NCBI GenBank assembly: GCA_018694295.1
Contig: JABHNK010000055.1
Span: 65,232-129,231 of the forward strand
Source of the DNA: Waddliaceae bacterium
GTDB taxonomy: Bacteria > Chlamydiota > Chlamydiia > Chlamydiales > JABHNK01
Reading direction: 5' to 3'
DNA length: 64,000 nucleotides
Shown: positions 1-52,170 of the stretch, in pieces
How positions within the stretch are numbered: position 1 is the first letter of the stretch
Layout: each line of letters starts with the position of its first letter
Position numbers and translations under genes: made by a program
The notes under the pieces: generated by a model
What the model was told of the DNA's origin: nothing
What the model saw: the letters and a program-made list of their open reading frames with translations, nothing else
The model's database searches: none

Positions 1-178
1 AGAGAAAGAAAACAATTTAGCTGGGGAATTCTCCCCCAGCCCCCCATTTTTGAAAGGTGGTCTGTAAATGGTAAACGGTGAACTTTTTAAAATCCTCGGG
101 GTTCTAGGGGTGAAACCCCTAGCCCGCCTACTGTTCTCTCTGTGTCCTCTGTGTCTCTGTGGTGAAAAATCCTATTCC
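1..178. repeat. Window-truncated copy of a dispersed MITE-like intergenic element (right half with ctctgtg words and ggtgaaaaatcctattcc end)
   Basis: Aligns by eye with 39894..40045 and partly with 13275..13363. Shared blocks: gggttctcccc..ccccc, cggrgttctaggggtraaacc, ttctctctgt, ccgtgg/ctgtgg words, ggtgaaaaatcct. Contains heptamer run gtaaatg/gtaaacg/gtgaact at 64..84 and hairpin ctagggg-tgaaa-cccctag at 104..122. Confidence 0.6.
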
Positions 179-181
179 GAA

Positions 182-210
182 ATTCTTCTATCCGCTATTT
201 ATGGTAGAAT
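182..210 (+). promoter_or_regulatory. Possible extended -10 promoter for the pelA-like gene
   Basis: tgGTAGAAT (TG at 202..203, tagaat at 205..210), about 58 nt upstream of the ATG at 268. The -35 region is weak. Confidence 0.3.
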
Positions 211-267
211 CAACTATTACCCAAAAATGGCATGTTTTGAACCGTGCCAAAAATTAAGAGGGAAAAC

Positions 268-2439
268 ATGAAAACTACTGTCATCGCTTTATTATTATCT
301 TTTTGTGCGGCCTTTACGTTATATGCCGAGAAGGTCGAGATCCCCAGGACGATCCTTGTTTTGATAAATTCTTCCAATGACCCTTTTATTACCGAAGACT
401 ATAACGTCGTACACTTCAGTGCAGAGAGCGTCTTGAACCATCTTGGCATGAATGTCCGCTACCACGACGTCTCTAAAGGTCTACCTTCTGATGATAGTCT
501 TGACGAGATATACGGTATTCTTTCATATTTCACCGACGCCACCATGCCACGAGCAAAAGAATATTGTCTATGGGCGACAGAGCAGATCGACAATGGCAAG
601 AAGTTCGTGGTATGGCGTAATTTCGGTGCTTTCCGCGATGCCGACAGCGACGAGGAAACTTCCAAGGACTTGGTTGCTCTATTTTTCAGGAAGCTCGGCC
701 TTGAATACCTTGAGAATTGGAGCGACTCCCCTTTTCTCATCGACATCGTCGAGAAAGACGATACTATGATGGACTTCGAGAATTCCATCGAAGGCACCGT
801 CGAATTATATGAGCAGTTTCTTTCTGCAGATGCCGAAAACAAAGTATATCTCAGGCTGAACCGTTCTGACCTCGACTTTGGTGACAGTGACGCTATCGTG
901 ACGACGCCATCTGGTGGTTTTATCATGGACGGGTGTGGGCTTTTCATCAACTACATCGACAAGCGCATGCGTTGGTATATCGACCCTTTTAAATTTTTCA
1001 GCGAAGCTTTTGTCATAGAGGAGATCCCTTCTTACGATACAACTACTCTCTTTGGCAAAAGGATATTATATTCTCATATCGACGGCGACGGCATGAGGAA
1101 TATCTCTTTAGAAGACAAAAAGACGCCCTCTGGAAACATTATCTTCGAAGAGATCCTCAAGAAATATTCTCTGCCGATATCGGTATCGTTTATAACGGCA
1201 GAAACCAACGCCCGTTATCTCGGCAGTGCCAAAACAGAGTCACTCGCTAGGGAGATTCTTAAGTTCGACAACATCGAAGGCGGCATCCATGGATTCGCAC
1301 ACCCTCTCGACTGGTACAAAAAAATAGTATATTTCCCTATCAACAACTACTCGAAAAAAATCTACAACATACAAGAACTCGAGCTCGAAAACTCCGAGTC
1401 GTCTTATCTTTCGGGAGCTCGCGCTACTGTCGGGTGGAAGGAATACTTGGAAGCTGAGACCTTAGAAGCAGCGGAATACGTAAACGAAAACCTTATGCCT
1501 CCAGGAAAGCGCGTCGCTATAAACATGTGGACAGGAAACTGTAGGGCCCCTGCCGATGCTATCGCTATCGTTGATTCTATGGGCATAGCAAACATAAATG
1601 GCGGAGACACACGTTTCGACAGAGCAAACCCTTCGTATACCGGCGTTGCCGCTCTGACACGGCAAGATAAAGGTATGGTACAGTTCCAGACGAGCAACTC
1701 CAATGAGAACATATATACCAACGACTGGACGGGACCTTTTGATGGTTTCTCCTATGTCATCGAGAGCTTCATCCAGAGCGAATACCCTACTCTCGTCGCC
1801 TCCAAGCCTCGCAGAGTTCTGCCAATGAATATATACTATCATTTCTATAGCGGTGAGAGGGAAGACTCCGTACGTGCAACGAAAGAAGCATACGATTATG
1901 CTCTTTCTCAAGACGTCATACCAATTTTCGCCTCGGAATATGTTAAAGCGGCGCGCGGTTTCGTCGAAGGCAAGACTTTCATCCGCGATGACGACTCCTG
2001 GGAATTCCGCGACTATGGTCATTGCAGGACGATACGCCTTAATAGTAATACTATCTTCCCTGACATGGCACGTTCTGAGAACGTCTTAGGCTTTGTCGTA
2101 TGGGAAAGCTACTGCTACATCCATCTGTCTGAGGGTGATAGTGCCGTTCTATATCTTTCTAATAGCGCTCCAAAAGTTCCATTGTTAGAAAGCTCTTCGG
2201 CGATAGTCTATAATTGTAAGATATCGAAGGGAGATATATCTTTCGAGTCCCGAACCTTCCGCGAAGAAGAGTATACTTTCGTTAATATGGGGCGTTATTC
2301 GAAATATGACGTTACCATGAAGCTTCTTGGCAGCGATGATATTTTCTATAGCAAGAAGATAAAATCTGACAAGAAAGGAAAGCTTATTGTTCGCGCTCCG
2401 AAGTCGGAGGCTTTTTCTATAAAAGTCCTCTTGAAATAA
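268..2439 (+). CDS. Secreted polysaccharide deacetylase, PelA-like by position (CE4-type metal-site motifs)
   Basis: The track ORF 244..2439 starts on GTG. The ATG at 268 has a GAGGG RBS and opens a signal peptide (MKTTVIALLLSFCAAFTLYA). It has a CE4-like motif 1 (SHIDGDG, nt 1075..1092) and motif 2 (H-x3-H, IHGFAHP, nt 1288..1302). It is the first gene of a pel-type cluster. No GH166-like hydrolase motifs were recognised. Confidence 0.5.
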   Translation: MKTTVIALLLSFCAAFTLYAEKVEIPRTILVLINSSNDPFITEDYNVVHFSAESVLNHLGMNVRYHDVSKGLPSDDSLDEIYGILSYFTDATMPRAKEYCLWATEQIDNGKKFVVWRNFGAFRDADSDEETSKDLVALFFRKLGLEYLENWSDSPFLIDIVEKDDTMMDFENSIEGTVELYEQFLSADAENKVYLRLNRSDLDFGDSDAIVTTPSGGFIMDGCGLFINYIDKRMRWYIDPFKFFSEAFVIEEIPSYDTTTLFGKRILYSHIDGDGMRNISLEDKKTPSGNIIFEEILKKYSLPISVSFITAETNARYLGSAKTESLAREILKFDNIEGGIHGFAHPLDWYKKIVYFPINNYSKKIYNIQELELENSESSYLSGARATVGWKEYLEAETLEAAEYVNENLMPPGKRVAINMWTGNCRAPADAIAIVDSMGIANINGGDTRFDRANPSYTGVAALTRQDKGMVQFQTSNSNENIYTNDWTGPFDGFSYVIESFIQSEYPTLVASKPRRVLPMNIYYHFYSGEREDSVRATKEAYDYALSQDVIPIFASEYVKAARGFVEGKTFIRDDDSWEFRDYGHCRTIRLNSNTIFPDMARSENVLGFVVWESYCYIHLSEGDSAVLYLSNSAPKVPLLESSSAIVYNCKISKGDISFESRTFREEEYTFVNMGRYSKYDVTMKLLGSDDIFYSKKIKSDKKGKLIVRAPKSEAFSIKVLLK

Positions 2440-2440
2440 G

Positions 2441-2531
2441 ACCACGGAACCTTTTCAATGATCAATGTAAAAAAACTCACTTTTATTGATAATTGATAAC
2501 TGATAACTGATAATTGAAAAGGTTCCGTGGT
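2441..2531. repeat. 91-nt palindromic intergenic element with a heptamer core (second copy at 16812..16923)
   Basis: Arms accacggaaccttttcaat / attgaaaaggttccgtggt enclose tgataat-tgataac-tgataac-tgataat-tga (2487..2517). It starts 2 nt after the pelA-like stop and probably acts as a hairpin terminator. Confidence 0.75.
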
Positions 2532-2580
2532 AGTATATTCTTAAGGTGCTGCTTTATTTCCTCTTTCAAATATTAAAAAA

Positions 2581-2610
2581 ATAACATACATTACGAGTAA
2601 TGTATGTTAT
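2581..2610. promoter_or_regulatory. Perfect 14+14 bp palindrome upstream of the pelB-like gene (candidate operator or RNA hairpin)
   Basis: ataacatacattac-ga-gtaatgtatgttat ends 24 nt before the ATG at 2634. No other copy was seen in the window. Confidence 0.35.
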
Positions 2611-2633
2611 AAGCAAATGACCTAAAGGAAAAC

Positions 2634-5285
2634 ATGGGAATACCGTGGTGGAAATCAGCACTGTTTTTTATGGCGATCTTATTATTAAGTATCGCGATAT
2701 TCCCTACTGGCCGTCAGCTTGGCAAGTTTTATCACTACAGCAAGAACTTCGACGATGCTGATTTATATCTTTCTAGCCGCTATGATCGTGATCCTTCCGA
2801 CGAAGGAAATTCTCAGCGATATCTTTCTTCTCTTTTATTTTTCAAAGATTTCGATAAGTTTGAGGAAATCAGCGACGAGCTTTTAACCGTCATCCCCGAA
2901 AGCTTCTTGCTACACGAAGTTGTTGCTCGCTATCATGAAGAGCGCATGCGCTACCAGGAGGCCAGCTTTCATTGGGATAAGATGCTGGAGCTTATGCCTA
3001 TAGACGCCAACGTCCGCGACAAACTAGTATCATATTACAGTATAAACCAGCAATATGACAAACTTATAAAGGTCTATGAGCGTGACATTAGCGTCGCAGC
3101 AAACAACCTCGACAGCTACTATTCTTTGGCGCTTTTATATTCGTTACGTCACGACATTACTAATGCTAAGCGTATATATTCTAAGATAATAGAAGACTTC
3201 CCTTATGAAAGAAAATCCAAGATACGCCTTGCTCAGCTTCATGAATATTCTGGTGACGTTGCTCTTGCTATATCGTTATATCGTAGAGTTTCTGAAGAAA
3301 ACCCCGAAGACAGAAGTGCGATGGTCGCTCTTGGCAACAAGCTATTGTCGTATTCTGAAGTCGACGGTTTTATGTCTTTCTTAGAACGCTTCCAGGGAAA
3401 ATATCCCGGCGATACTCTTTACTATGACGAGCAAGCGTCGCTATATCTTGGTATAAAGGACCGTATTAACGCTATTGCTTTGATAGAAAAAGAATACCTT
3501 CGTTCTCCCGATAATCTTGCGTTATTATTTTCTATGGGTGAGCTTTACTTCGAGATAAAAGACTACAGCAAAGCTCTCGACATCCTAGAAAAATACAATT
3601 CGAAGACAACAAAGGACGACTATCGTTCTTACCATCTTCTTGGCGATGTTTTTGCTGCTGTTGGTGACAAAGCATCTAGCGTCAATGCCTATGAGCATGC
3701 TTTTGAGCTTGTGGAATATAATGTTCCACAAGATTCTTTCTCCGATGATATCGTCAATGAAAAGTCCTACACAAAAAAGCTTTCTCTTTACGAAGAATAC
3801 CGCAGTCGTTTCCCGGAAAAGGCTGCCCCTGAAGCAGAGGTCTCTTATGCTGTAGCCGTCCAGGAGGCTTTTCCTTTAGAAGATGTAGTATCACGCACTG
3901 TTGATATGGAGATCGCAGAAGTATGGATTCTGTGGAAGCTTGGTCGCCATGATGAAGCCATCGCCAAAAGCGATGAACTTTCAAAGCAGCACCCCAATAA
4001 TACTGAGCTGACATATTTCTTGATAAACTCATATTTCGAGCGAAATATGACGGCGAAAGCCCGCAAGCTTTATGATGTCCTAGAGATGAAAGGCCCCTAC
4101 GACGCCAATCTTAAAGAGTTGAAGTTCTCTCTTCTTATTCAAGAAGGTCGTTGGTCCGAGGCTTATGCTCTCTCTGAAGAGTTTCTAGTAGAAAGCCCTT
4201 TCAATGACTACAGCGAAGATCGCGTTTATATTCTTACGAAGATGAAGCGCTGGCGCGAAGCCAAAAATATCTACGAGGAAAAGATCGCCGCTCGGGATGC
4301 CGCTGGGGCTCCTCACAACGACCGCTACATTTGGGATGCTCGTTCTGCCATAGAAGAGGGCTCTGACCTTTTATGGAGCGACGTTATATACGAACACGAT
4401 AGCAACACAGAACGGCACTATACCATAGAAGCAGGATGTCGTAGTTGGCTTTCAGAGTCTTTACGATTATCGGCTGTTGCCGCTAGAGAATACCACAAAC
4501 GTGATGAAGAAGAAAACCCTGTTGCTTCTGCCGTCAGCGATAATGTTTCTTCTATTACATTGCGTGCGGAGAAATTTTTAAACTACAGCTTCACTGCAGA
4601 AGGTCACGTTTCCTTGCCATCTTATGGTGATGAGACCTTCCCTGAGTTTGGCGTTAAGGCTCTATATAATAGGACTCGTTTTTATGACTTGGAGTCATAT
4701 ATTTCCTATACCCACGACCGTCTAAGCCGCGACCTCGACAAGCTCCCTATAGAGATGCAATACAACACTCTAGAGGCCTTCGGCAAGGTGTATCCCAATA
4801 ACATCCTTTCACTAGACTATCTTTTCCGCAGTGAGTGGTATCATTTACCTGGGAAATATAATACCGTCAATGGCAACTCTTCTTTAGGCTACAAAATATG
4901 GAACGAAGTAGAGCTTGGTATATTGCTTATGAATCGTCCTTCGTGGAATTTGTCTTTGATAAACCATGTATATCAATCGCATTGGGTAAAGCCTTTCGAC
5001 GAGGCCGGCCAGGTCGTTGATTTGGGCGAGAAGGAAAAGGCGTGGTATGGCGGGTTGTATGGCGAGTTTTTTGTTAAGACGCTATCGCGAACGTCGTGGA
5101 GTTTATATAGAAAACACAATTCCTCCAAGGGTTTCTACTCCACGCTTTTTGCTATGTCTTCGGAGTTCTGGGTCCGCGACGATGCTGTCTTAACGATATC
5201 TTTAGACCACAAATACAAAGACGACACTGCTGACATCCGCACCGTCTCTAACGATATAACGGCGAATTTTAAGGTGTTACTATAA
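2634..5285 (+). CDS. pelB: PelB-like TPR scaffold fused to a C-terminal outer-membrane beta-barrel
   Basis: 883 aa. It has an N-terminal TM anchor (WWKSALFFMAILLLSIAIF) and about 550 aa of TPR-like helical repeats. The C-terminal ~300 aa is rich in alternating aromatic and polar residues, typical of a porin. Its position is second in the pel-type cluster. The assignment rests on architecture and synteny. Confidence 0.6.
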   Translation: MGIPWWKSALFFMAILLLSIAIFPTGRQLGKFYHYSKNFDDADLYLSSRYDRDPSDEGNSQRYLSSLLFFKDFDKFEEISDELLTVIPESFLLHEVVARYHEERMRYQEASFHWDKMLELMPIDANVRDKLVSYYSINQQYDKLIKVYERDISVAANNLDSYYSLALLYSLRHDITNAKRIYSKIIEDFPYERKSKIRLAQLHEYSGDVALAISLYRRVSEENPEDRSAMVALGNKLLSYSEVDGFMSFLERFQGKYPGDTLYYDEQASLYLGIKDRINAIALIEKEYLRSPDNLALLFSMGELYFEIKDYSKALDILEKYNSKTTKDDYRSYHLLGDVFAAVGDKASSVNAYEHAFELVEYNVPQDSFSDDIVNEKSYTKKLSLYEEYRSRFPEKAAPEAEVSYAVAVQEAFPLEDVVSRTVDMEIAEVWILWKLGRHDEAIAKSDELSKQHPNNTELTYFLINSYFERNMTAKARKLYDVLEMKGPYDANLKELKFSLLIQEGRWSEAYALSEEFLVESPFNDYSEDRVYILTKMKRWREAKNIYEEKIAARDAAGAPHNDRYIWDARSAIEEGSDLLWSDVIYEHDSNTERHYTIEAGCRSWLSESLRLSAVAAREYHKRDEEENPVASAVSDNVSSITLRAEKFLNYSFTAEGHVSLPSYGDETFPEFGVKALYNRTRFYDLESYISYTHDRLSRDLDKLPIEMQYNTLEAFGKVYPNNILSLDYLFRSEWYHLPGKYNTVNGNSSLGYKIWNEVELGILLMNRPSWNLSLINHVYQSHWVKPFDEAGQVVDLGEKEKAWYGGLYGEFFVKTLSRTSWSLYRKHNSSKGFYSTLFAMSSEFWVRDDAVLTISLDHKYKDDTADIRTVSNDITANFKVLL

Positions 5286-5286
5286 A

Positions 5287-5676
5287 ATGAAAAAGAAGAA
5301 ACACAAAATCCTTATCCTCGACGGCGACAAGGCCACGCTCAAGATCATAGCGAAGTATTTATCGTGGAATGGTTTTTCTGTAGATACTATGAATGATGCA
5401 GAAGAAGTATTGTCGCGTATTGAGAAGAAAAAATACTCTCTTGTCATCTGTGACGAGCTCCTTGCTCCCGACAATGGGTATGCTTTGTGTGAAAAGATAA
5501 GAGGCCATAGCAAAGAGGTCGTGTCTGCGGTAAATATCATCATCATTGCCGCCGAAGACCCCGACATTGAAAAGTATGCCACTTTAAAACGTTGCAATGC
5601 TTTCTTCTTAAACAAATATGCAAGCCCAGGAAGGTGGCTTAGCAAGATAAAACTTATCATTGGAGACGACCAATAA
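5287..5676 (+). CDS. Stand-alone response-regulator receiver (REC) domain protein
   Basis: 129 aa. Acidic pocket ILILDGD, phospho-acceptor context SLVICD (Asp56, nt 5452..5454), and a conserved Lys in FLNKY. It starts 2 nt after the pelB stop, and its stop overlaps the next start (TAATG at 5674..5678). Confidence 0.7.
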   Translation: MKKKKHKILILDGDKATLKIIAKYLSWNGFSVDTMNDAEEVLSRIEKKKYSLVICDELLAPDNGYALCEKIRGHSKEVVSAVNIIIIAAEDPDIEKYATLKRCNAFFLNKYASPGRWLSKIKLIIGDDQ

Positions 5677-7097
5677 TGCTAAAGAAAAAACCTTACATCA
5701 TAGAGACTATCGTCGCCTTTATCCTATACGACATCGTCAACTACCTGCTATTCCGTGGAGACCTCGGCTTCAGGGAAGTATACTGGCATCCTTATTGGGT
5801 CGTCGTCCTTCTTATGCCTTCGCGTTATGGCTTCTCTGCAGGCGTCTTCGCCAGTATCGTCGCGATATTTCATGTGTTCTTCATAAACATCGGATATGTA
5901 TCTTCTATGACGGAATTTCAGGAGCTCGTAGAAAAAGTTGGCGCTGTGCTACCTCTTGCTTTCATCACCGTCGGGATGACCTTGGGAGCGCTGAGACAGA
6001 AATACAAGAACCAGGAAGAGAAGAGAGCGGAGATTATAGAGAAACAAAAAAACGATATGCTTCGTGTGCAGGACGACCTCGACAGGGCGGTAAAGGTCCG
6101 CGACGCTTTAGAGAAAAAGATCGTAGGAGAGACTTCTACTATAATGACGATGTACGAGATCTCAAAAAAATTCGGGTCTTTGAAAGTCGAAGACATATAT
6201 TCCGGATGTCTTGATATCCTCGAGAATCTTTTTCAAGTTGATGTCTCTTCTTTATATATCATAGAAGGCGGCTATTATGTCCTCAAAGCCTCACGCAACT
6301 GGGCAGAAAGCTCTGAAGTCGAAGGGAAGATAAAGCTCGACGGCAGCATCATGGATCTTGCCAGGAAAAAGAACGGCATCGTCACGGCGAAAGACATCGT
6401 CTCCGACAAAGACTCCCAGAAATACTTCTCGGAATACAGCAAGCTTTTAGCGATGTTCCCGATACGCAATGTCGAAGGAGAATTTATCGGAGCAGTAAAC
6501 ATCGAGAAGATGAGCTTTATACTGTTCAACGCCACGAACATAAACCTCATGGAAGTCATCGTCAACTGGATGAGTTCTTCCTTACAAGCTTTGATGACAA
6601 ACGAAGCTTTACAGGGACAACTTCCTTGGGACAAGGAATACAAGGTGTGTCACCACTCGTATTTCGACAATATCCTCGAACATGAATTCCTTCGCGCCAA
6701 AGAGCACGGCTTCAAGCTTACCGTCTCTTTAATAAAGATCGAAAAATTCGGGTTTCTAAACAAAGAATCCCAGCGTCTAACATTAAACTCCCTGATAGCG
6801 CTGTTAAAGCGTCATATGGGAAACCTCGACATTATCTTCCACTATAAATTCGATGGCACCATAGCAATAATATCTCCGATGAAAGACGGCAAGACAACAA
6901 CTTCCGATATCGGAAAGGTGGTAAAAGGGTGGAAAAAAGTCAGCGCTACCGGAGAAAAAGATTCTGTACATACAGAGCTAGTATTTTCTACATCAGCGCT
7001 TACAAAGAAGATGAAAGATCATTCTGCGTTGTTAAAGCCTGCTCTAGCGGGATGTAAGCTTAGTAAGCCTTCATTTGCCTCAAAAAAAAAGAAGTAA
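5676..7097 (+). CDS. pelD: PelD-like inner-membrane protein (TM region, coiled coil, GAF-like domain, degenerate GGDEF domain)
   Basis: 473 aa. The N-terminus has about 4 TM helices. The middle region is GAF-like (SLYIIEGGYYVLKASRNW). The C-terminal domain aligns to GGDEF but is degenerate (KFDGT in place of GGDEF). The RxxD I-site position reads GNLD (nt 6819..6830). Confidence 0.6.
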   Translation: MLKKKPYIIETIVAFILYDIVNYLLFRGDLGFREVYWHPYWVVVLLMPSRYGFSAGVFASIVAIFHVFFINIGYVSSMTEFQELVEKVGAVLPLAFITVGMTLGALRQKYKNQEEKRAEIIEKQKNDMLRVQDDLDRAVKVRDALEKKIVGETSTIMTMYEISKKFGSLKVEDIYSGCLDILENLFQVDVSSLYIIEGGYYVLKASRNWAESSEVEGKIKLDGSIMDLARKKNGIVTAKDIVSDKDSQKYFSEYSKLLAMFPIRNVEGEFIGAVNIEKMSFILFNATNINLMEVIVNWMSSSLQALMTNEALQGQLPWDKEYKVCHHSYFDNILEHEFLRAKEHGFKLTVSLIKIEKFGFLNKESQRLTLNSLIALLKRHMGNLDIIFHYKFDGTIAIISPMKDGKTTTSDIGKVVKGWKKVSATGEKDSVHTELVFSTSALTKKMKDHSALLKPALAGCKLSKPSFASKKKK

Positions 7098-7100
7098 AAA

Positions 7101-8213
7101 ATGGAAAACAACAAACGTAACATCTTACTACTTTCAATGATGATTGCAGGCCTTTCATCGGAAGCCTCCCTGCTTCCGATGTTCTGGTATGATATAAGCA
7201 TCGTGGCTCTCTGCGTCGTACATATATTTGCGTGTACACTTTTATCTATAACGCTATATTTTTGGAACCTTGAAGAGCGCAGCTTCGAGCATCCTTTGGC
7301 TTTCTATGGGCTACTTTTGATGATAACATTCCCCGTCTTCGGGTTGCTGGCTTTGTCGTTGTTATTCGTCACAGCGGGATGGTTTCGCGAGAAGATGGTG
7401 ATGGGCTCCTACAACGACTACAAAGAGCACATCACAAAAAAAGGCATAAACATCGACGTCTCCAAAGGGCATATCGAAGGTCTTCGCGATATAAGAAGCG
7501 AGATAAGCTTCGACTCATTCATCGACGTCATCAAAGGTGAAGATTCCAAGAAAAAATCACAGGTAGTCAACAAACTCTCCGAAGACGTCTCCAAGGAAAA
7601 CATCTCTCTCCTTAAAGAGGCTTTAAACGACGCATCGCAGGACGTACGCTTCTATGCCGCTGATGCCCTGATGAAAGTCGAAGGGAATATCAACAACGAG
7701 ATCGCCGTCGCAGAACATATGGCTCAGCATCGCGGTGGCTCTTATGCTGCTGGTGCTATGATAAAACTCGAAGACAAGATCGGCAACGAGATCGCCATCG
7801 CCAAGATGATGACACAGCGTCGTGGTATGATGAAAGACTTCCTACGTCTTGGCGACATATACCAAGACTATGCTTTCAGTGGTCTTCTGGAGAAAAACTC
7901 CCAGAAGCATTATTTCTCTCTAAGCTGCGAAGAGTACCAGAAGGCTTTGGATATCGAGACGGGACAGCCGAAAGTTATGTTACGATATATCCACAGCCTT
8001 CTACAGCTAGGAGAGCATAAGCATTCGCAGAAAATGCTGAAACAGCTTTCGAAGATATGGAAGACGAACAATGACATACACTTCCTCAGTGCTTCGATGG
8101 CATTCTATCTTAATAAGTTCGGCGACATAAAAAAACATCTAGAAAAGATCGTCCTCGAAGATCTCGACGACGAAAAAATAGAGACGGTGAAATTTTGGCT
8201 ACAAAAGACATAG
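7101..8213 (+). CDS. PelE-like membrane protein with a helical-repeat (TPR/HEAT-like) cytoplasmic domain
   Basis: 370 aa. It has N-terminal TM helices, then helical repeats (DVRFYAADALMKVEG; YQKALDIETGQPKVMLRYIHSLLQLGEH). It occupies the pelE position. The assignment is by topology and synteny only. Confidence 0.45.
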   Translation: MENNKRNILLLSMMIAGLSSEASLLPMFWYDISIVALCVVHIFACTLLSITLYFWNLEERSFEHPLAFYGLLLMITFPVFGLLALSLLFVTAGWFREKMVMGSYNDYKEHITKKGINIDVSKGHIEGLRDIRSEISFDSFIDVIKGEDSKKKSQVVNKLSEDVSKENISLLKEALNDASQDVRFYAADALMKVEGNINNEIAVAEHMAQHRGGSYAAGAMIKLEDKIGNEIAIAKMMTQRRGMMKDFLRLGDIYQDYAFSGLLEKNSQKHYFSLSCEEYQKALDIETGQPKVMLRYIHSLLQLGEHKHSQKMLKQLSKIWKTNNDIHFLSASMAFYLNKFGDIKKHLEKIVLEDLDDEKIETVKFWLQKT

Positions 8214-18906: not shown

Positions 18907-21273
18907 CTACACCTCCACAATGTTTTCCATGGTGTTTTTATTTTTTTCTGGGATCTCTTCTGGGAAGAAGACATCGCTTGGCAAGGTATGAAGTTTCAAC
19001 AACGCGAGGAACCATGCCAACGTCGATTCTGCACCTTGGTTTCTGTTGGGCCCTGTAACCTGAAGTCCATCGCAGCACCCTCCTGTTATAGGGTCGTACA
19101 GTGGAACCTGCAGGTCGTTATATCCCAAGAACCATCTGAAGCATCGTGATGCTTCCGTCACCCACTTTCTATCTTTAGTAACGCGATATGCTTCGACACA
19201 TGCTTCGACGAGAGCTCCTGCATCGATAGGCTGCTGATCAAAGCGTGCGCTTTTCTTTTTGTTTCTCTCTTTCCATCCAGCATTTCCTACTATCGTTATA
19301 TGTCCTTTTTCGCTGGTCTGTATATCGAGAAGCCACTGCAAAGATTTAAGCCCTGCTTTTATCATAGCGTCGTTTTCTAGTCCTTTCCCTGCTACAAGCA
19401 AAGCCTGTGGGAAGCGTGCGTTGGCATATGTTAAAATGTCTTCAAACCACGGCCAATCTTCTGAAGCATTACCTTCATAAAGGCCATACAATTTTTTCGC
19501 CAAAGTTTTTCTCATACCTTTTACGAAAGCGTCGCCACCAAAACGGCGCAGATAAACTTCTATGCCGATAAGTGCGAACATCCAGCTTCGTGGCGAAGAA
19601 AATTTCTCTACGGCAGGAAGTCCATCGACGAAGAAACATGCCGCAGGTCTTGTGATATCGTCGCTTAATGACGACGATGCCACGACACCAAGGCTCCATA
19701 ATGCTCTACCGTGGGAGTCTTCACTGCCGGCCTTTTCAAGCCACTTTCTGTCGTACGAAAGGAAGTTCCTGAAACGTCCTACTTTGTCGTCGAAAGCTGC
19801 GTGGATGAAAGAGATGTAATTTCTTACTAGTGGCAGGACGTTATCATCTTTATAAATGCCATAATGGTTCGATACCGCTATCAATGCCCTTGCGTTATCA
19901 TCGACACAATACCCATGGAATCTGTTAGGTATGGAATATGTGGCGTGCTGGAATATCCCTGTGTCGTCTGTCATAGCATATATATATCGAAGGTCTATCT
20001 TAGGAAGGGTCATCATGCCGTCAGTTACCTGTCCTTCAGTGTTCATTGTTCGCGGGTGCTGCCCCCTTTCCTCGAAAGCTTCCTGAAATATCTTAGCATA
20101 AGATTTCCCCACTGCAGACCATACCATGTCACGGCCTTGGTGGTATGCTTTTTTCCTTATAGAATGACGATGAACGGCATCATCGAGAAGATGGACGATA
20201 TTCTCTGCGAGAGCTTTGCTGTCACCGAAAGGGAACAATATACCGCGCCCTTCAGCGAGAAGCTCTTCGGCGTGGCGGTATGGTGTCGAAACTACTGGCT
20301 TTCCGGCGCCGGCGGCATACGCCAGCGTCCCTGATGTTATCTGCTCGGCATTATGGTATGGCGTTACGTAGACATCAGCGCTTCCTATGTATTCGCATAG
20401 TTTCTCTAGGGAGACGAACTCATCGACGAAGATGACATTGTCTTCGAGGCCTAGCTCTTTTGTGAGAGCAACGAGGCTTTCGCGATATTCTTCGCCGTGG
20501 TCGCGCTTAACATGTGGATGTGTCTTCCCGAGACATATATATACGGCGCGCGGATGTTTTTTCACGACATCAGCCATTGCCTTTATGGCAACTTCGATAC
20601 CTTTTCCTGAAGATAACAATCCAAAGGTAAGGATAACATCGCGTCCTTCGACGCCGAAGTTGTCTTTGTAGTAGTTGGGGTCAATAAACGAGACGTCTGG
20701 TATGCCGTGTGGTATCATAGCGAGCTTCGTATCAGGGATGTCGTATACTTCTTTGAGGATCTTCTTAGCATATTCCGTCATAACAACGACCTTACTAGAC
20801 AGCTGTATTATCTCTTCTGTAACTCTACGCTGATCGTCGTTAGGATGTGACAGAACGGTATGCATATTTGTTATTATAGGCATATGGAGGTCGCGCATCA
20901 TCTCGAGGAGATGTTCTCCAGCAGCGCCACCATAGATACCATATTCATGCTGGATAAGGACGACTTCGGTGTTGTTGTAGTTCATATAGTCGGCGACGCT
21001 AGCGTAGTCTTTGGCGACATCATCACGAAGCTGTAGCCTAACCATCTCGGGGTACGGATACCCTTCGACGACGTCGTCCATAGCAACGGCGTATACACGA
21101 TCAGCGCCCATCTCTGCGGCCATACATTTACATGTGTCTTCAGTAAACGTCGCAATACCACACATCCGCGGCGTGTAATTTCCGATGACAGCGATCTTCC
21201 CGAGGGCAAGACTTCGATACTGCATCCTGTGCATCGCCATGCTTTTGCTTCTTGCATTTTTAGGCATCGTCAT
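18907..21273 (-). CDS. Fusion protein: N-terminal GT4 glycosyltransferase plus a ~370-aa C-terminal helical (alpha/alpha-barrel-like) domain
   Basis: 788 aa with an AAGGAG RBS. The N-terminus is KIAVIGNYTPRMCGIATFTED and the GT4 core contains TPYHNAEQITSGTLAYAAGAGKPVVST. The C-terminal half (YCVDDNARALIAV.., SHGRALWSLG.., AGALVEACVEAY) resembles a glycoside-hydrolase-like toroid. Confidence 0.65.
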   Translation of the reverse strand: MTMPKNARSKSMAMHRMQYRSLALGKIAVIGNYTPRMCGIATFTEDTCKCMAAEMGADRVYAVAMDDVVEGYPYPEMVRLQLRDDVAKDYASVADYMNYNNTEVVLIQHEYGIYGGAAGEHLLEMMRDLHMPIITNMHTVLSHPNDDQRRVTEEIIQLSSKVVVMTEYAKKILKEVYDIPDTKLAMIPHGIPDVSFIDPNYYKDNFGVEGRDVILTFGLLSSGKGIEVAIKAMADVVKKHPRAVYICLGKTHPHVKRDHGEEYRESLVALTKELGLEDNVIFVDEFVSLEKLCEYIGSADVYVTPYHNAEQITSGTLAYAAGAGKPVVSTPYRHAEELLAEGRGILFPFGDSKALAENIVHLLDDAVHRHSIRKKAYHQGRDMVWSAVGKSYAKIFQEAFEERGQHPRTMNTEGQVTDGMMTLPKIDLRYIYAMTDDTGIFQHATYSIPNRFHGYCVDDNARALIAVSNHYGIYKDDNVLPLVRNYISFIHAAFDDKVGRFRNFLSYDRKWLEKAGSEDSHGRALWSLGVVASSSLSDDITRPAACFFVDGLPAVEKFSSPRSWMFALIGIEVYLRRFGGDAFVKGMRKTLAKKLYGLYEGNASEDWPWFEDILTYANARFPQALLVAGKGLENDAMIKAGLKSLQWLLDIQTSEKGHITIVGNAGWKERNKKKSARFDQQPIDAGALVEACVEAYRVTKDRKWVTEASRCFRWFLGYNDLQVPLYDPITGGCCDGLQVTGPNRNQGAESTLAWFLALLKLHTLPSDVFFPEEIPEKNKNTMENIVEV

Positions 21274-21421
21274 CTATCTCCTTTATTTAACCAATGTTTG
21301 TGATATATCCTCTTACCACAGCAAACAATACCACGGAGTCATCGTTATTGGCAATACATACAATCCGGCAGAATTATAACTTGTTAATATTTGTGTTTTT
21401 TTGGTAAGATATGTGTTCTTC

Positions 21422-50577: not shown

Positions 50578-52170
50578 ATGTCACAACCTACGAGTAAGAG
50601 CACAGGGTTCGGCAAGCTCCGTTCGTTTTTTTGGCCCGTACGTCGTTACGAGCTTAAGAAGCTTCTTCCTATGCTCATTCTTTTCTTTTTGATATCTTTC
50701 GCTTATAACATTCTGAGGGGCGTCAAAGACACTCTCATCGTCACGGCCGAGGGTTCTGGTGCCGAAGCGATACCATTCATTAAGATGTATGCGATGTTCC
50801 CTGCTGCTATATTTCTTACTGCTCTTTTCACGCGTCTTTCTACGCATTTCAGTAGGGAGAACGTTTTTTATATCATGATATCGGTATTCATGATTTTCTT
50901 CTTATTCTTCGGCACTGTGTTATATCCTAATCGTGAGCTATTACATTTACATAGTTTTGCGGCATTCTGCACTGCCAATCTCCCTGAGGGTTTCATGGGT
51001 TTTATTGCCATGATACGGTACTGGATCTTCACATCTTTCTATGTGATGGCGGAGCTGTGGGGGGCTTTACTTCTTTCTTTACTTTTCTGGGGTTTCGCCA
51101 ATGACATCACCAAGATCTGTGAAGCCAAGAGATTCTATGGTCTTTTCGCCATAGGAGCGAATGTTGCGAGCATAGTTTCCGGTCAAGTTTCGATATTTTT
51201 ATCACGGAGATCCTTCAATCCAAGGCTTCATTTCGGCAGTGAAAGCTGGGAGCAATCGCTTATGCTTCTTATTTTTGTTGTCGTCATCATCTGCCTTTTG
51301 CTTATGGTAGTATTCCGTTGGATGCACTGTCACGTTCTCACTGACCCTAAACTTTGCAATGTAAAGGCCGTTACTGAGACTGCTTCTAAGAAGACGAAGA
51401 TGTCGTTACGGAAAAATATTGCGTATATCCTTTCTTCAAAATATCTTTTAGGCGTTGCTGTTATCGTCGTCACCTATAATGTCGTCATAAACCTCGTAGA
51501 GGTCGTCTGGAAACACCAGATCAAGCTATTATACCCTTTACCTGCCGACTACAATGTTTATATGAACCAGATAACGACAATGACAGGCATTGTCGCCACT
51601 CTTATCGCCCTTCTTATCTCCGGAAATGCTATAAGAAAATGTGGCTGGACGTTTACTGCACTAATAACTCCAATAATTTTACTTGTCACGAGCGTAGTGT
51701 TCTTCGGAACTCTTCTTTTCAGCGGACATTTCAGCGACGTCTTAATATCTTTTACTGGGATGACGCCTCTTTACCTTGTCGCCTTCGTAGGATCCGCTCA
51801 AAACATTTTAAGCCGCGCCTCGAAATATACTGTCTTCGATGCCACTAAAGAAATAACTTACATCCCCCTCGATAGAGACGCTAGGATAAAAAGCAAGTCT
51901 GCCATCGACGGTGTGGGCTCTCGCATGGGGAAATCCGGCGGTGCTATAATTCACCAAGTTCTTCTTATGATCTTCGGTTCTTTGGCGGTAACAGCGCCTT
52001 ATGTCGCAGTAATTCTGATTGTAATAATCGTTGGGTGGATCATCGCCACAAAAAGGATCGGAAAGAAAGTCGACAAAGTCGTCAATGATCACGAGTTTGC
52101 TATCTTCAACAAAAACGGTGTCATTTCTGGTGAGCGTGTCGACATTTCAGCGCCTAAAAATAGCGGATAG
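50578..52170 (+). CDS. NTT/TLC-family nucleotide (ATP/ADP) translocase
   Basis: 530 aa with about 12 TM segments. The N-terminus (FGKLRSFFWPVRRYELKKLLPMLILFFLISFAYNILRGVKDTLIV) is typical of chlamydial and rickettsial Npt/Tlc transporters. Confidence 0.88.
   Translation: MSQPTSKSTGFGKLRSFFWPVRRYELKKLLPMLILFFLISFAYNILRGVKDTLIVTAEGSGAEAIPFIKMYAMFPAAIFLTALFTRLSTHFSRENVFYIMISVFMIFFLFFGTVLYPNRELLHLHSFAAFCTANLPEGFMGFIAMIRYWIFTSFYVMAELWGALLLSLLFWGFANDITKICEAKRFYGLFAIGANVASIVSGQVSIFLSRRSFNPRLHFGSESWEQSLMLLIFVVVIICLLLMVVFRWMHCHVLTDPKLCNVKAVTETASKKTKMSLRKNIAYILSSKYLLGVAVIVVTYNVVINLVEVVWKHQIKLLYPLPADYNVYMNQITTMTGIVATLIALLISGNAIRKCGWTFTALITPIILLVTSVVFFGTLLFSGHFSDVLISFTGMTPLYLVAFVGSAQNILSRASKYTVFDATKEITYIPLDRDARIKSKSAIDGVGSRMGKSGGAIIHQVLLMIFGSLAVTAPYVAVILIVIIVGWIIATKRIGKKVDKVVNDHEFAIFNKNGVISGERVDISAPKNSG

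Follow-up and report, generated by a model that had tools for sequence, protein, structure and literature searches.

How is synthesis of the exopolysaccharide Pel controlled in a bacterium in whose genome no gene for cyclic dimeric GMP (c-di-GMP) signalling is found? Pel is among the most widespread biofilm polysaccharides, and to our knowledge its sole established post-translational switch is the binding of c-di-GMP to the protein PelD. The question is raised by a pel gene cluster in a 64,000-nucleotide (nt) stretch of DNA from a Waddliaceae bacterium (Chlamydiota; assembly GCA_018694295.1, contig JABHNK010000055.1, positions 65,232 to 129,231), here called the window. Coordinates without a prefix are those of the window, and C67 denotes the contig that carries it (genome G000; window 50596–52068, for example, corresponds to C67:115827–117299). 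We focus on a PelD-type protein encoded in this cluster and on a receiver-fold protein, REC_d, encoded directly before it. The operons described below all come from uncultured organisms, and the evidence consists of sequence, synteny and predicted folds.

The genome assembly (1.61 Mb in 68 contigs, 96.95% complete) has no match to GGDEF (PF00990), EAL, PilZ or HD_5 (HD-GYP-type), and from its gene content the organism is predicted to be unable to make, degrade or otherwise sense c-di-GMP. A gene for a DAC-domain c-di-AMP cyclase (DacA) is present. An earlier note on this DNA, made from the letters of the window, had assumed a lineage in which c-di-GMP signalling is not known: the search of this 97%-complete genome for GGDEF, EAL and HD-GYP-type genes agrees with that assumption, but the phylum does not, as PF00990 matches 146 of the 401 sampled Chlamydiota genomes (and none of the 30 in the small-genome family f4).

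The two genes in question, and the parts of the PelD-type protein, are as follows.

5287..5676, plus strand: REC_d, a single-domain receiver of CheY fold, 129 amino acids (a.a.) (Pfam Response_reg PF00072, 48.7 bits against a cut-off of 30.2; AlphaFold2 (AF2); Foldseek; family alignment)
5676..7097, plus strand: PelD-type protein, 473 a.a. (AF2, Foldseek, profile search)
6186–6587: GAF domain of the PelD-type protein (a.a. 171–304), after N-terminal membrane helices and a long coiled helix (AF2 model)
6627–7055, plus strand: degenerate GGDEF-fold domain, a.a. about 318–460 (AF2, Foldseek, DgcR profile)
6819..6860, plus strand: GNLD instead of RxxD at the degenerate I-site, then five residues and KFDG-T at the degenerate GGDEF motif

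In its AF2 model (predicted local distance difference test score, pLDDT, 81), the PelD-type protein has helices at the N terminus and a long helix, then a GAF domain and a domain of GGDEF fold. Its top Foldseek match is the GAF-GGDEF cyclase 4zmu (E = 1.5e-10), and the Pseudomonas aeruginosa PelD structures 4dn0 (E = 3.1e-10) and 4dmz (E = 3.9e-10) are matched over about 300 columns. A profile built from 14 sequences of its clade matches the GGDEF fold of DgcR (6zxm, E = 7.7e-11) and the GAF domain of 3e0y (E = 8e-7). Direct sequence similarity to the PelD chains in PDB is weak (E = 0.08–1.5, in the GAF domain only), so we call the protein PelD-type by its architecture and context; no PelD-specific Pfam model matched it, and at E ≤ 10 just GAF_3, GAF and DUF4118 did.

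The c-di-GMP-binding I-site of this protein is degenerate. The residues G382-N-L-D385-I-I-F-H-Y-K-F-D-G-T395 map to nt 6819–6860, where the earlier note, aligning by eye, had read an I-site with the arginine lost and the aspartate kept. That reading is upheld by two independent alignments: phmmer against the cyclase 6d9m lays ‘svREVDivirYGGDEF’ over ‘hmGNLDiifhYKFDG-T’, and in the 14-sequence profile the RKSD of DgcR (6zxm) falls on the columns of G382..D385. Both alignments put the cyclase GG(D/E)EF on the KFDG-T stretch. The note had also considered that a profile might find an RxxD motif elsewhere in the domain; the profile placed RxxD on G382..D385 instead. A second arginine, at position 333, is found in 88% of the RxxD-bearing homologues; this position is Ile333 in the window protein and V, M, C or I across the clade without RxxD. 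No conserved arginine was found 29–32 residues downstream of the I-site, the equivalence to PelD R402 being positional only. In P. aeruginosa PelD, R367, D370 and R402 are each needed for the binding of c-di-GMP and for Pel to be produced (PMC2170427). As judged from the alignments, the window PelD has kept the membrane–GAF–GGDEF-fold architecture and lost the arginines that bind c-di-GMP, and in all likelihood it works independently of c-di-GMP.

Loss of the I-site extends to the relatives of the protein. A full hidden Markov model scan collected 3177 PelD homologues, where word-indexed homologue searches gave just two (P0003 and P0034); loci were searched for with an 8-sequence alignment, a 33-sequence alignment being too diverse. 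Among 128 full-length representatives, RxxD is found in 76 of the 95 distant ones and in four of the 33 that form a close clade with the window PelD (24–39% identity). Members of the close clade are on metagenome contigs and in metagenome-assembled genomes (MAGs) of Candidatus Omnitrophota (L079–L083) and Elusimicrobiota (L098, a single MAG). Each of the five Omnitrophota genomes searched has 5–14 GGDEF genes, and I-site loss, like the pairing of pelD with a receiver gene described below, is therefore a trait of the operon type rather than an effect of life without c-di-GMP; the earlier note's view that the loss fits a c-di-GMP-free lineage falls with this.

The second protein, REC_d, has a receiver fold: its AF2 model (pLDDT 95) is a (beta-alpha)5 fold with a Foldseek TM score of about 0.83 to CheY. 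Its key residues are D12, G13, D14, D56, A88 and K110, with Asp56 at the end of strand 3. The earlier note had taken the phospho-acceptor context to be intact. Asp56 is indeed there, but the positions of CheY D13 and T87 are occupied by Gly13 and Ala88, and an acceptor aspartate is found in just three of the 12 REC_d sequences (window, L080 and L098), the rest having G, S or N. Within the acidic stretch after strand 1 (D12-G13-D14 in the window), family members differ at the D13 position, whereas 10 out of 11 have D14; the Thr/Ser is retained in three out of 11 sequences and the Lys in nine out of 11. The catalytic residues being so poorly kept, we regard REC_d as a pseudo-receiver family in which Asp56 of the window is exceptional.

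A REC_d-family gene (about 125–135 codons) lies immediately before pelD in all 14 loci with upstream DNA (the window, L027, L080–L082, L084–L091 and L098), at a distance of at most about 90 nt and usually less than 15 nt or with an overlap. These 14 loci share just 24–41% protein identity, which shows that the adjacency is not chance and supports a functional tie of REC_d to pelD. In the window, as the earlier note had it, the open reading frames (ORFs) 5287–5676 and 5676–7097 overlap by stop and start: the REC_d stop TAA (5674–5676) and the pelD ATG share one A (TAATG), with a Shine–Dalgarno sequence GGAGA about 10 nt upstream. From its sequence context REC_d is probably the partner of PelD, and a fixed REC_d–PelD complex, co-translated, is the most likely arrangement. 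We also considered a reciprocal loss, in which either the REC aspartate or the PelD RxxD would be kept, an idea that came from L027 (REC_d acceptor Gly, PelD RPTD); it was rejected, as most loci have lost both.

The other genes of the cluster are given below.

C67:64272–65117, just left of the window: GH114 hydrolase gene, separate from pelA (Pfam GH114, E = 9.9e-24)
244..2439, plus strand: PelA homologue, deacetylase and C-terminal part (phmmer against PDB 9cgy_A PelA, E = 3e-61)
2634..5285, plus strand: PelB-like TPR protein, 883 a.a. (multiple TPR Pfam families, TPR_19 E = 2e-21)
7101..8213, plus strand: PelE-like helical-repeat protein, 370 a.a. (weak HEAT/TPR matches; the position after pelD is kept in all loci)
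8195..10222, plus strand: HEAT-repeat protein, 675 a.a. (HEAT_2, E = 8.7e-29)
10212..11708, plus strand: PelF glycosyltransferase (NCBIfam NF038011, E = 2.4e-151)
11696..13066, plus strand: PelG (Pfam PF16933, E = 2.1e-114)

By its PelA, PelF and PelG matches the locus is identified as a genuine Pel exopolysaccharide operon. In the PelA homologue, a.a. 236–652 align to residues 438–832 of 9cgy_A, just the deacetylase and C-terminal part being matched; PelA homologues are present in every pel locus examined. The pelB-like stop (5285) is 1 nt ahead of the REC_d ATG, and from pelB to pelG all junctions overlap or have gaps of ≤3 nt, which makes REC_d an internal cistron of the operon. A promoter and terminator scan of window 1–13500 gave nothing decisive. 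No PelC-like lipoprotein gene was seen in the cluster (window 1–13066 and C67:64272–65117). The gene order GH114/PelA/PelB-TPR/REC_d/PelD/PelE-like/HEAT protein/PelF/PelG defines a distinct operon type. For example, every locus of this type from Omnitrophota, Elusimicrobiota or metagenomes keeps the 675-a.a. HEAT protein between the PelE-like gene and pelF, and no homologue of it was found in the pel loci of the chlamydial type; the counterpart of the PelB-like protein in the Omnitrophota loci is two separate TPR ORFs.

Every Pel protein of the window is nearer to the Omnitrophota-type loci than to other chlamydial Pel operons: 43–56% versus 34–41% identity for PelF, 37–51% versus 25–30% for PelG, 32–41% versus 18–22% for PelD and 44–49% versus 26–32% for PelA. 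This makes the cluster one of the Omnitrophota type, which has probably moved by lateral transfer; the sequences make it most likely that transfer, in either direction, accounts for an operon type common to the chlamydia, Omnitrophota and Elusimicrobiota. A misbinned Omnitrophota contig was rejected as the explanation, as a TLC nucleotide transporter gene lies on the same contig and the flanking RlmN is 52% identical to that of a same-family genome (G025), which has no PelD. The genome itself is chlamydial, placed in the same taxonomic order as a set of 1.0–1.2 Mb genomes, and has four TLC transporters, the one in the window at about 50596–52068 (E = 1.7e-190). A TLC transporter on the Pel contig marks a host-dependent lifestyle of the chlamydia type. 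In L027, a metagenome contig with a 32%-identical PelD, helicase genes of the Ski2/DSHCT type (1–2547) and the Hel308 type (19116–21332) flank the locus.

If REC_d is a degenerate receiver, where might a signal come from? The earlier note had reported no cognate histidine kinase in the window. No kinase lies there, but a kinase and two canonical receivers are found just outside it, with a chemosensory set farther left:

C67:62904–64178, minus strand: GAF-HisKA-HATPase kinase, ending 1.05 kb left of window base 1, with the GH114 gene next
C67:61426–62533: REC_a and REC_b, canonical single-domain receivers
C67:49161–57110: Wsp-like set of an MCP, two CheW, a CheR-TPR, a CheA-REC hybrid and a CheB

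Receivers of the same kind belong to the operon elsewhere: in L027, L080 and L082 the operon opens with a canonical receiver gene (DD, D, T, KP), directly before GH114, and REC_a and REC_b of the window genome share up to 61% identity with these operon-leading receivers. A kinase gene follows pelG in L082 and L083, in the latter with a receiver thereafter. Within C67:28–71 kb, abutting pel, lie all the HisKA kinases (six), CheA (one) and receiver domains (10) of the genome. These observations, together with those on other chlamydial operons below, support the view that two-component genes are wired to the window Pel operon and to other Pel operons of the Planctomycetes–Verrucomicrobia–Chlamydiae (PVC) group.

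The island upstream of pel (C67:28362–65117, roughly 37 kb) holds the whole two-component and chemosensory repertoire, with none found elsewhere in the assembly; it also contains an NtrC-like regulator, a REC-CheB-REC protein and several single-domain receivers. At C67:47768–49140 (minus strand) a 167-a.a. PAS-only ORF directly precedes a 272-a.a. HisKA-HATPase ORF, the pair being either one frameshift-split sensor kinase or two genes. The Wsp-like set has no WspR (no PF00990 match in the genome). A role of these chemotaxis genes in serving a flagellum was rejected, as neither flagellin nor FliG was found in the genome. CheR-TPR fusions mark chemosensory pathways with alternative, non-motility functions (PMC3447774).

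PelD-like genes (17–23% identity) are found in 28 of the 400 other sampled Chlamydiota genomes, always in pelA..pelD-pelE-pelF-pelG clusters. RxxD is retained in three of the 15 full-length chlamydial PelDs (G324, G146 and G252), all in genomes with strong GGDEF genes; it is lost in the remaining 12, of which 11 are from genomes without a GGDEF match and one from a genome with a weak match. A PAS-HisKA-HATPase kinase with a canonical receiver, or a receiver alone, is found at nine of the 12 loci without RxxD and at none of the three with it; these genes sit directly after pelG or before GH114. Because the chlamydial genomes are related, this association is a pattern and not a statistical test. 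The comparison suggests two alternative control schemes for one Pel machine. Five further chlamydial PelDs (L054, L059, L062, L063 and L066, from genomes G136, G104, G062, G179 and G371) stop after the GAF domain (about 300–320 a.a.) and have no GGDEF-fold domain, like the streptococcal class.

The explanation we favour overall, which we think about as likely to be right as wrong, is an Omnitrophota-type Pel operon with a pseudo-receiver–PelD module that is addressed by phospho-receivers. REC_d would be the fixed partner of PelD, a docking or allosteric element in place of the nucleotide. The signal would come in by way of REC_a and REC_b, the two canonical single-domain receivers, to which the neighbouring GAF histidine kinase, and perhaps the Wsp-like chemosensory set as well, would pass phosphate, and a phospho-receiver acting on the REC_d–PelD module would then switch on the PelDEFG synthase. 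The step through REC_a is plausible but somewhat doubtful. A still more specific form, an all-protein Pel switch in which the pseudo-receiver sits permanently on the dead GGDEF domain and is addressed via phospho-receivers by a Wsp-like array without WspR, is speculative and rather unlikely. The earlier note had proposed that the locus swapped c-di-GMP control for phosphorelay control: the lost I-site and the linked two-component genes bear this out in part, but REC_d, which the note took as the switch, is unlikely to be a normal phospho-switch.

Several points weigh against a phospho-receiver-addressed module. The genome is a 68-contig MAG, so a cyclase gene may have been overlooked. The REC_d sample is small (n = 12, all from uncultured organisms), and no natural REC-PelD fusions were found among the longer homologues. 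In Chlamydiota the three RxxD-bearing loci are all from one family, and the associations of RxxD with kinase and receiver genes come from related genomes. The pairing of kinase and receiver is a guess from their proximity, and the target of REC_a, REC_b and the kinases could be transcription, through a partner not seen here, or a process other than Pel synthesis.

Among the alternatives, the one that survives best, although we consider it a minority reading, is that Pel synthesis receives no post-translational signal whatever: REC_d would, like the dead GGDEF domain, be a purely structural part of the synthase complex, and transcription would set Pel output, possibly via the nearby two-component genes. 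The catalytic degeneracy of both modules is what this would predict, streptococcal PelD without a GGDEF domain still supports Pel (PMC7112168, PMC12345266), and the five chlamydial PelDs that terminate after GAF are in line with it. However, Lys110 and Asp14 of REC_d are nearly invariant, and canonical receivers without a DNA-binding output are nevertheless kept in or beside the operons in three phyla, which protein-level control fits better. Less likely still is a conventional phospho-switch, in which a kinase phosphorylates Asp56 and REC_d~P activates PelD. The REC_d fold is intact with both Asp56 and Lys110 present, L080 and L098 likewise retain the aspartate, and seven kinases are encoded within 45 kb upstream; but Gly stands at the metal-binding Asp13 position and Ala at that of Thr87, and with G, S or N as the acceptor in nine out of 12 members, phosphorylation cannot be what the family's conserved function relies on. 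It is improbable that nucleotide sensing persists in PelD through a non-canonical site or the GAF domain, with REC_d as an accessory and with c-di-GMP supplied by a host or neighbour, or c-di-AMP made by the genome's own DacA, as the ligand. In its favour are the DAC-domain cyclase gene and the selection that has maintained the GAF and GGDEF-fold domains throughout the clade. Against it, the whole clade has lost both arginines whose presence goes with c-di-GMP binding, P. aeruginosa PelD cannot do without any one of R367, D370 and R402 (PMC2170427), the genome has no PilZ, GGDEF or EAL gene, and nothing points to another ligand.

The pseudo-receiver–PelD module addressed by phospho-receivers thus remains our preferred reading. 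In the literature we searched, no account of Pel operons linked to receivers came up, and a survey of pel operons (PMC7112194) has no mention of chlamydiae, Omnitrophota, kinases or response regulators. For host-dependent chlamydiae, no exopolysaccharide and no output of the chemosensory genes have been described (PMC5604735). New here are the identification of REC_d as a pseudo-receiver, the clade-wide I-site loss despite the cyclases of Omnitrophota, and the Omnitrophota-type cluster; also new are the pattern of RxxD, cyclases and kinase–receiver genes across Chlamydiota and the whole signalling island adjoining pel. The locus also puts a complete Pel operon, together with all of the genome's signalling repertoire, in a marine, obligately host-dependent chlamydia. 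Control of Pel without c-di-GMP is a stated open question for streptococci (PMC12345266), to which the PVC-type operons offer a testable candidate answer: a conserved pseudo-receiver–PelD pair with operon-encoded kinases and canonical receivers. The all-protein switch, if true, would explain such control and would be the first output for the long-orphan chemosensory systems of non-flagellated chlamydiae.

The locus can be compared with four known systems. Like the Pel system of P. aeruginosa, it has PelA, PelB, PelF and PelG homologues and a PelD in which membrane helices are combined with GAF and degenerate GGDEF-fold domains, and the neighbouring set shares the MCP, two CheW, CheR-TPR, CheA-REC and CheB with the Wsp system of the same species. 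Unlike P. aeruginosa, it has no RxxD, no partner arginine, no WspR and no GGDEF gene, and no pelC was seen; it has instead a receiver gene before pelD, a HEAT protein after pelE and the PelA hydrolase as a separate GH114 protein. The streptococci with class IV PelD (Whitfield 2020, PMC7112168; PMC12345266) likewise have Pel in an organism without diguanylate cyclases, where PelD is thus unable to sense c-di-GMP, and the authors state that the regulator replacing c-di-GMP there is open. In those bacteria, however, the GGDEF domain is deleted and a dead SDR domain added, whereas the window protein keeps the domain with its pocket degenerate, and the window locus has a dedicated receiver-fold partner and two-component genes.

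A precedent for the proposed logic is Myxococcus xanthus, where the kinase of the Dif chemosensory system signals via EpsW~P, a direct activator of EpsZ (PMC4671073, PMC12802240). At our locus, single-domain receivers are likewise encoded with polysaccharide genes, REC_d inside the operon and REC_a and REC_b directly upstream, and direct action on a biosynthesis protein is what we propose. That system is Wzx/Wzy-dependent, with a phosphoglycosyl transferase as the target and a working EpsW, whereas ours is synthase-dependent and the receiver next to pelD is mostly a pseudo-receiver. That a dead REC and a dead GGDEF module can cooperate is shown by Escherichia coli BcsE, in which such a tandem regulates or scaffolds a synthase-dependent secretion system (PMC7439463). 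The two modules are fused in BcsE and its GGDEF domain keeps the I-site and binds c-di-GMP there, whereas the window encodes them as two proteins, with the I-site lost.

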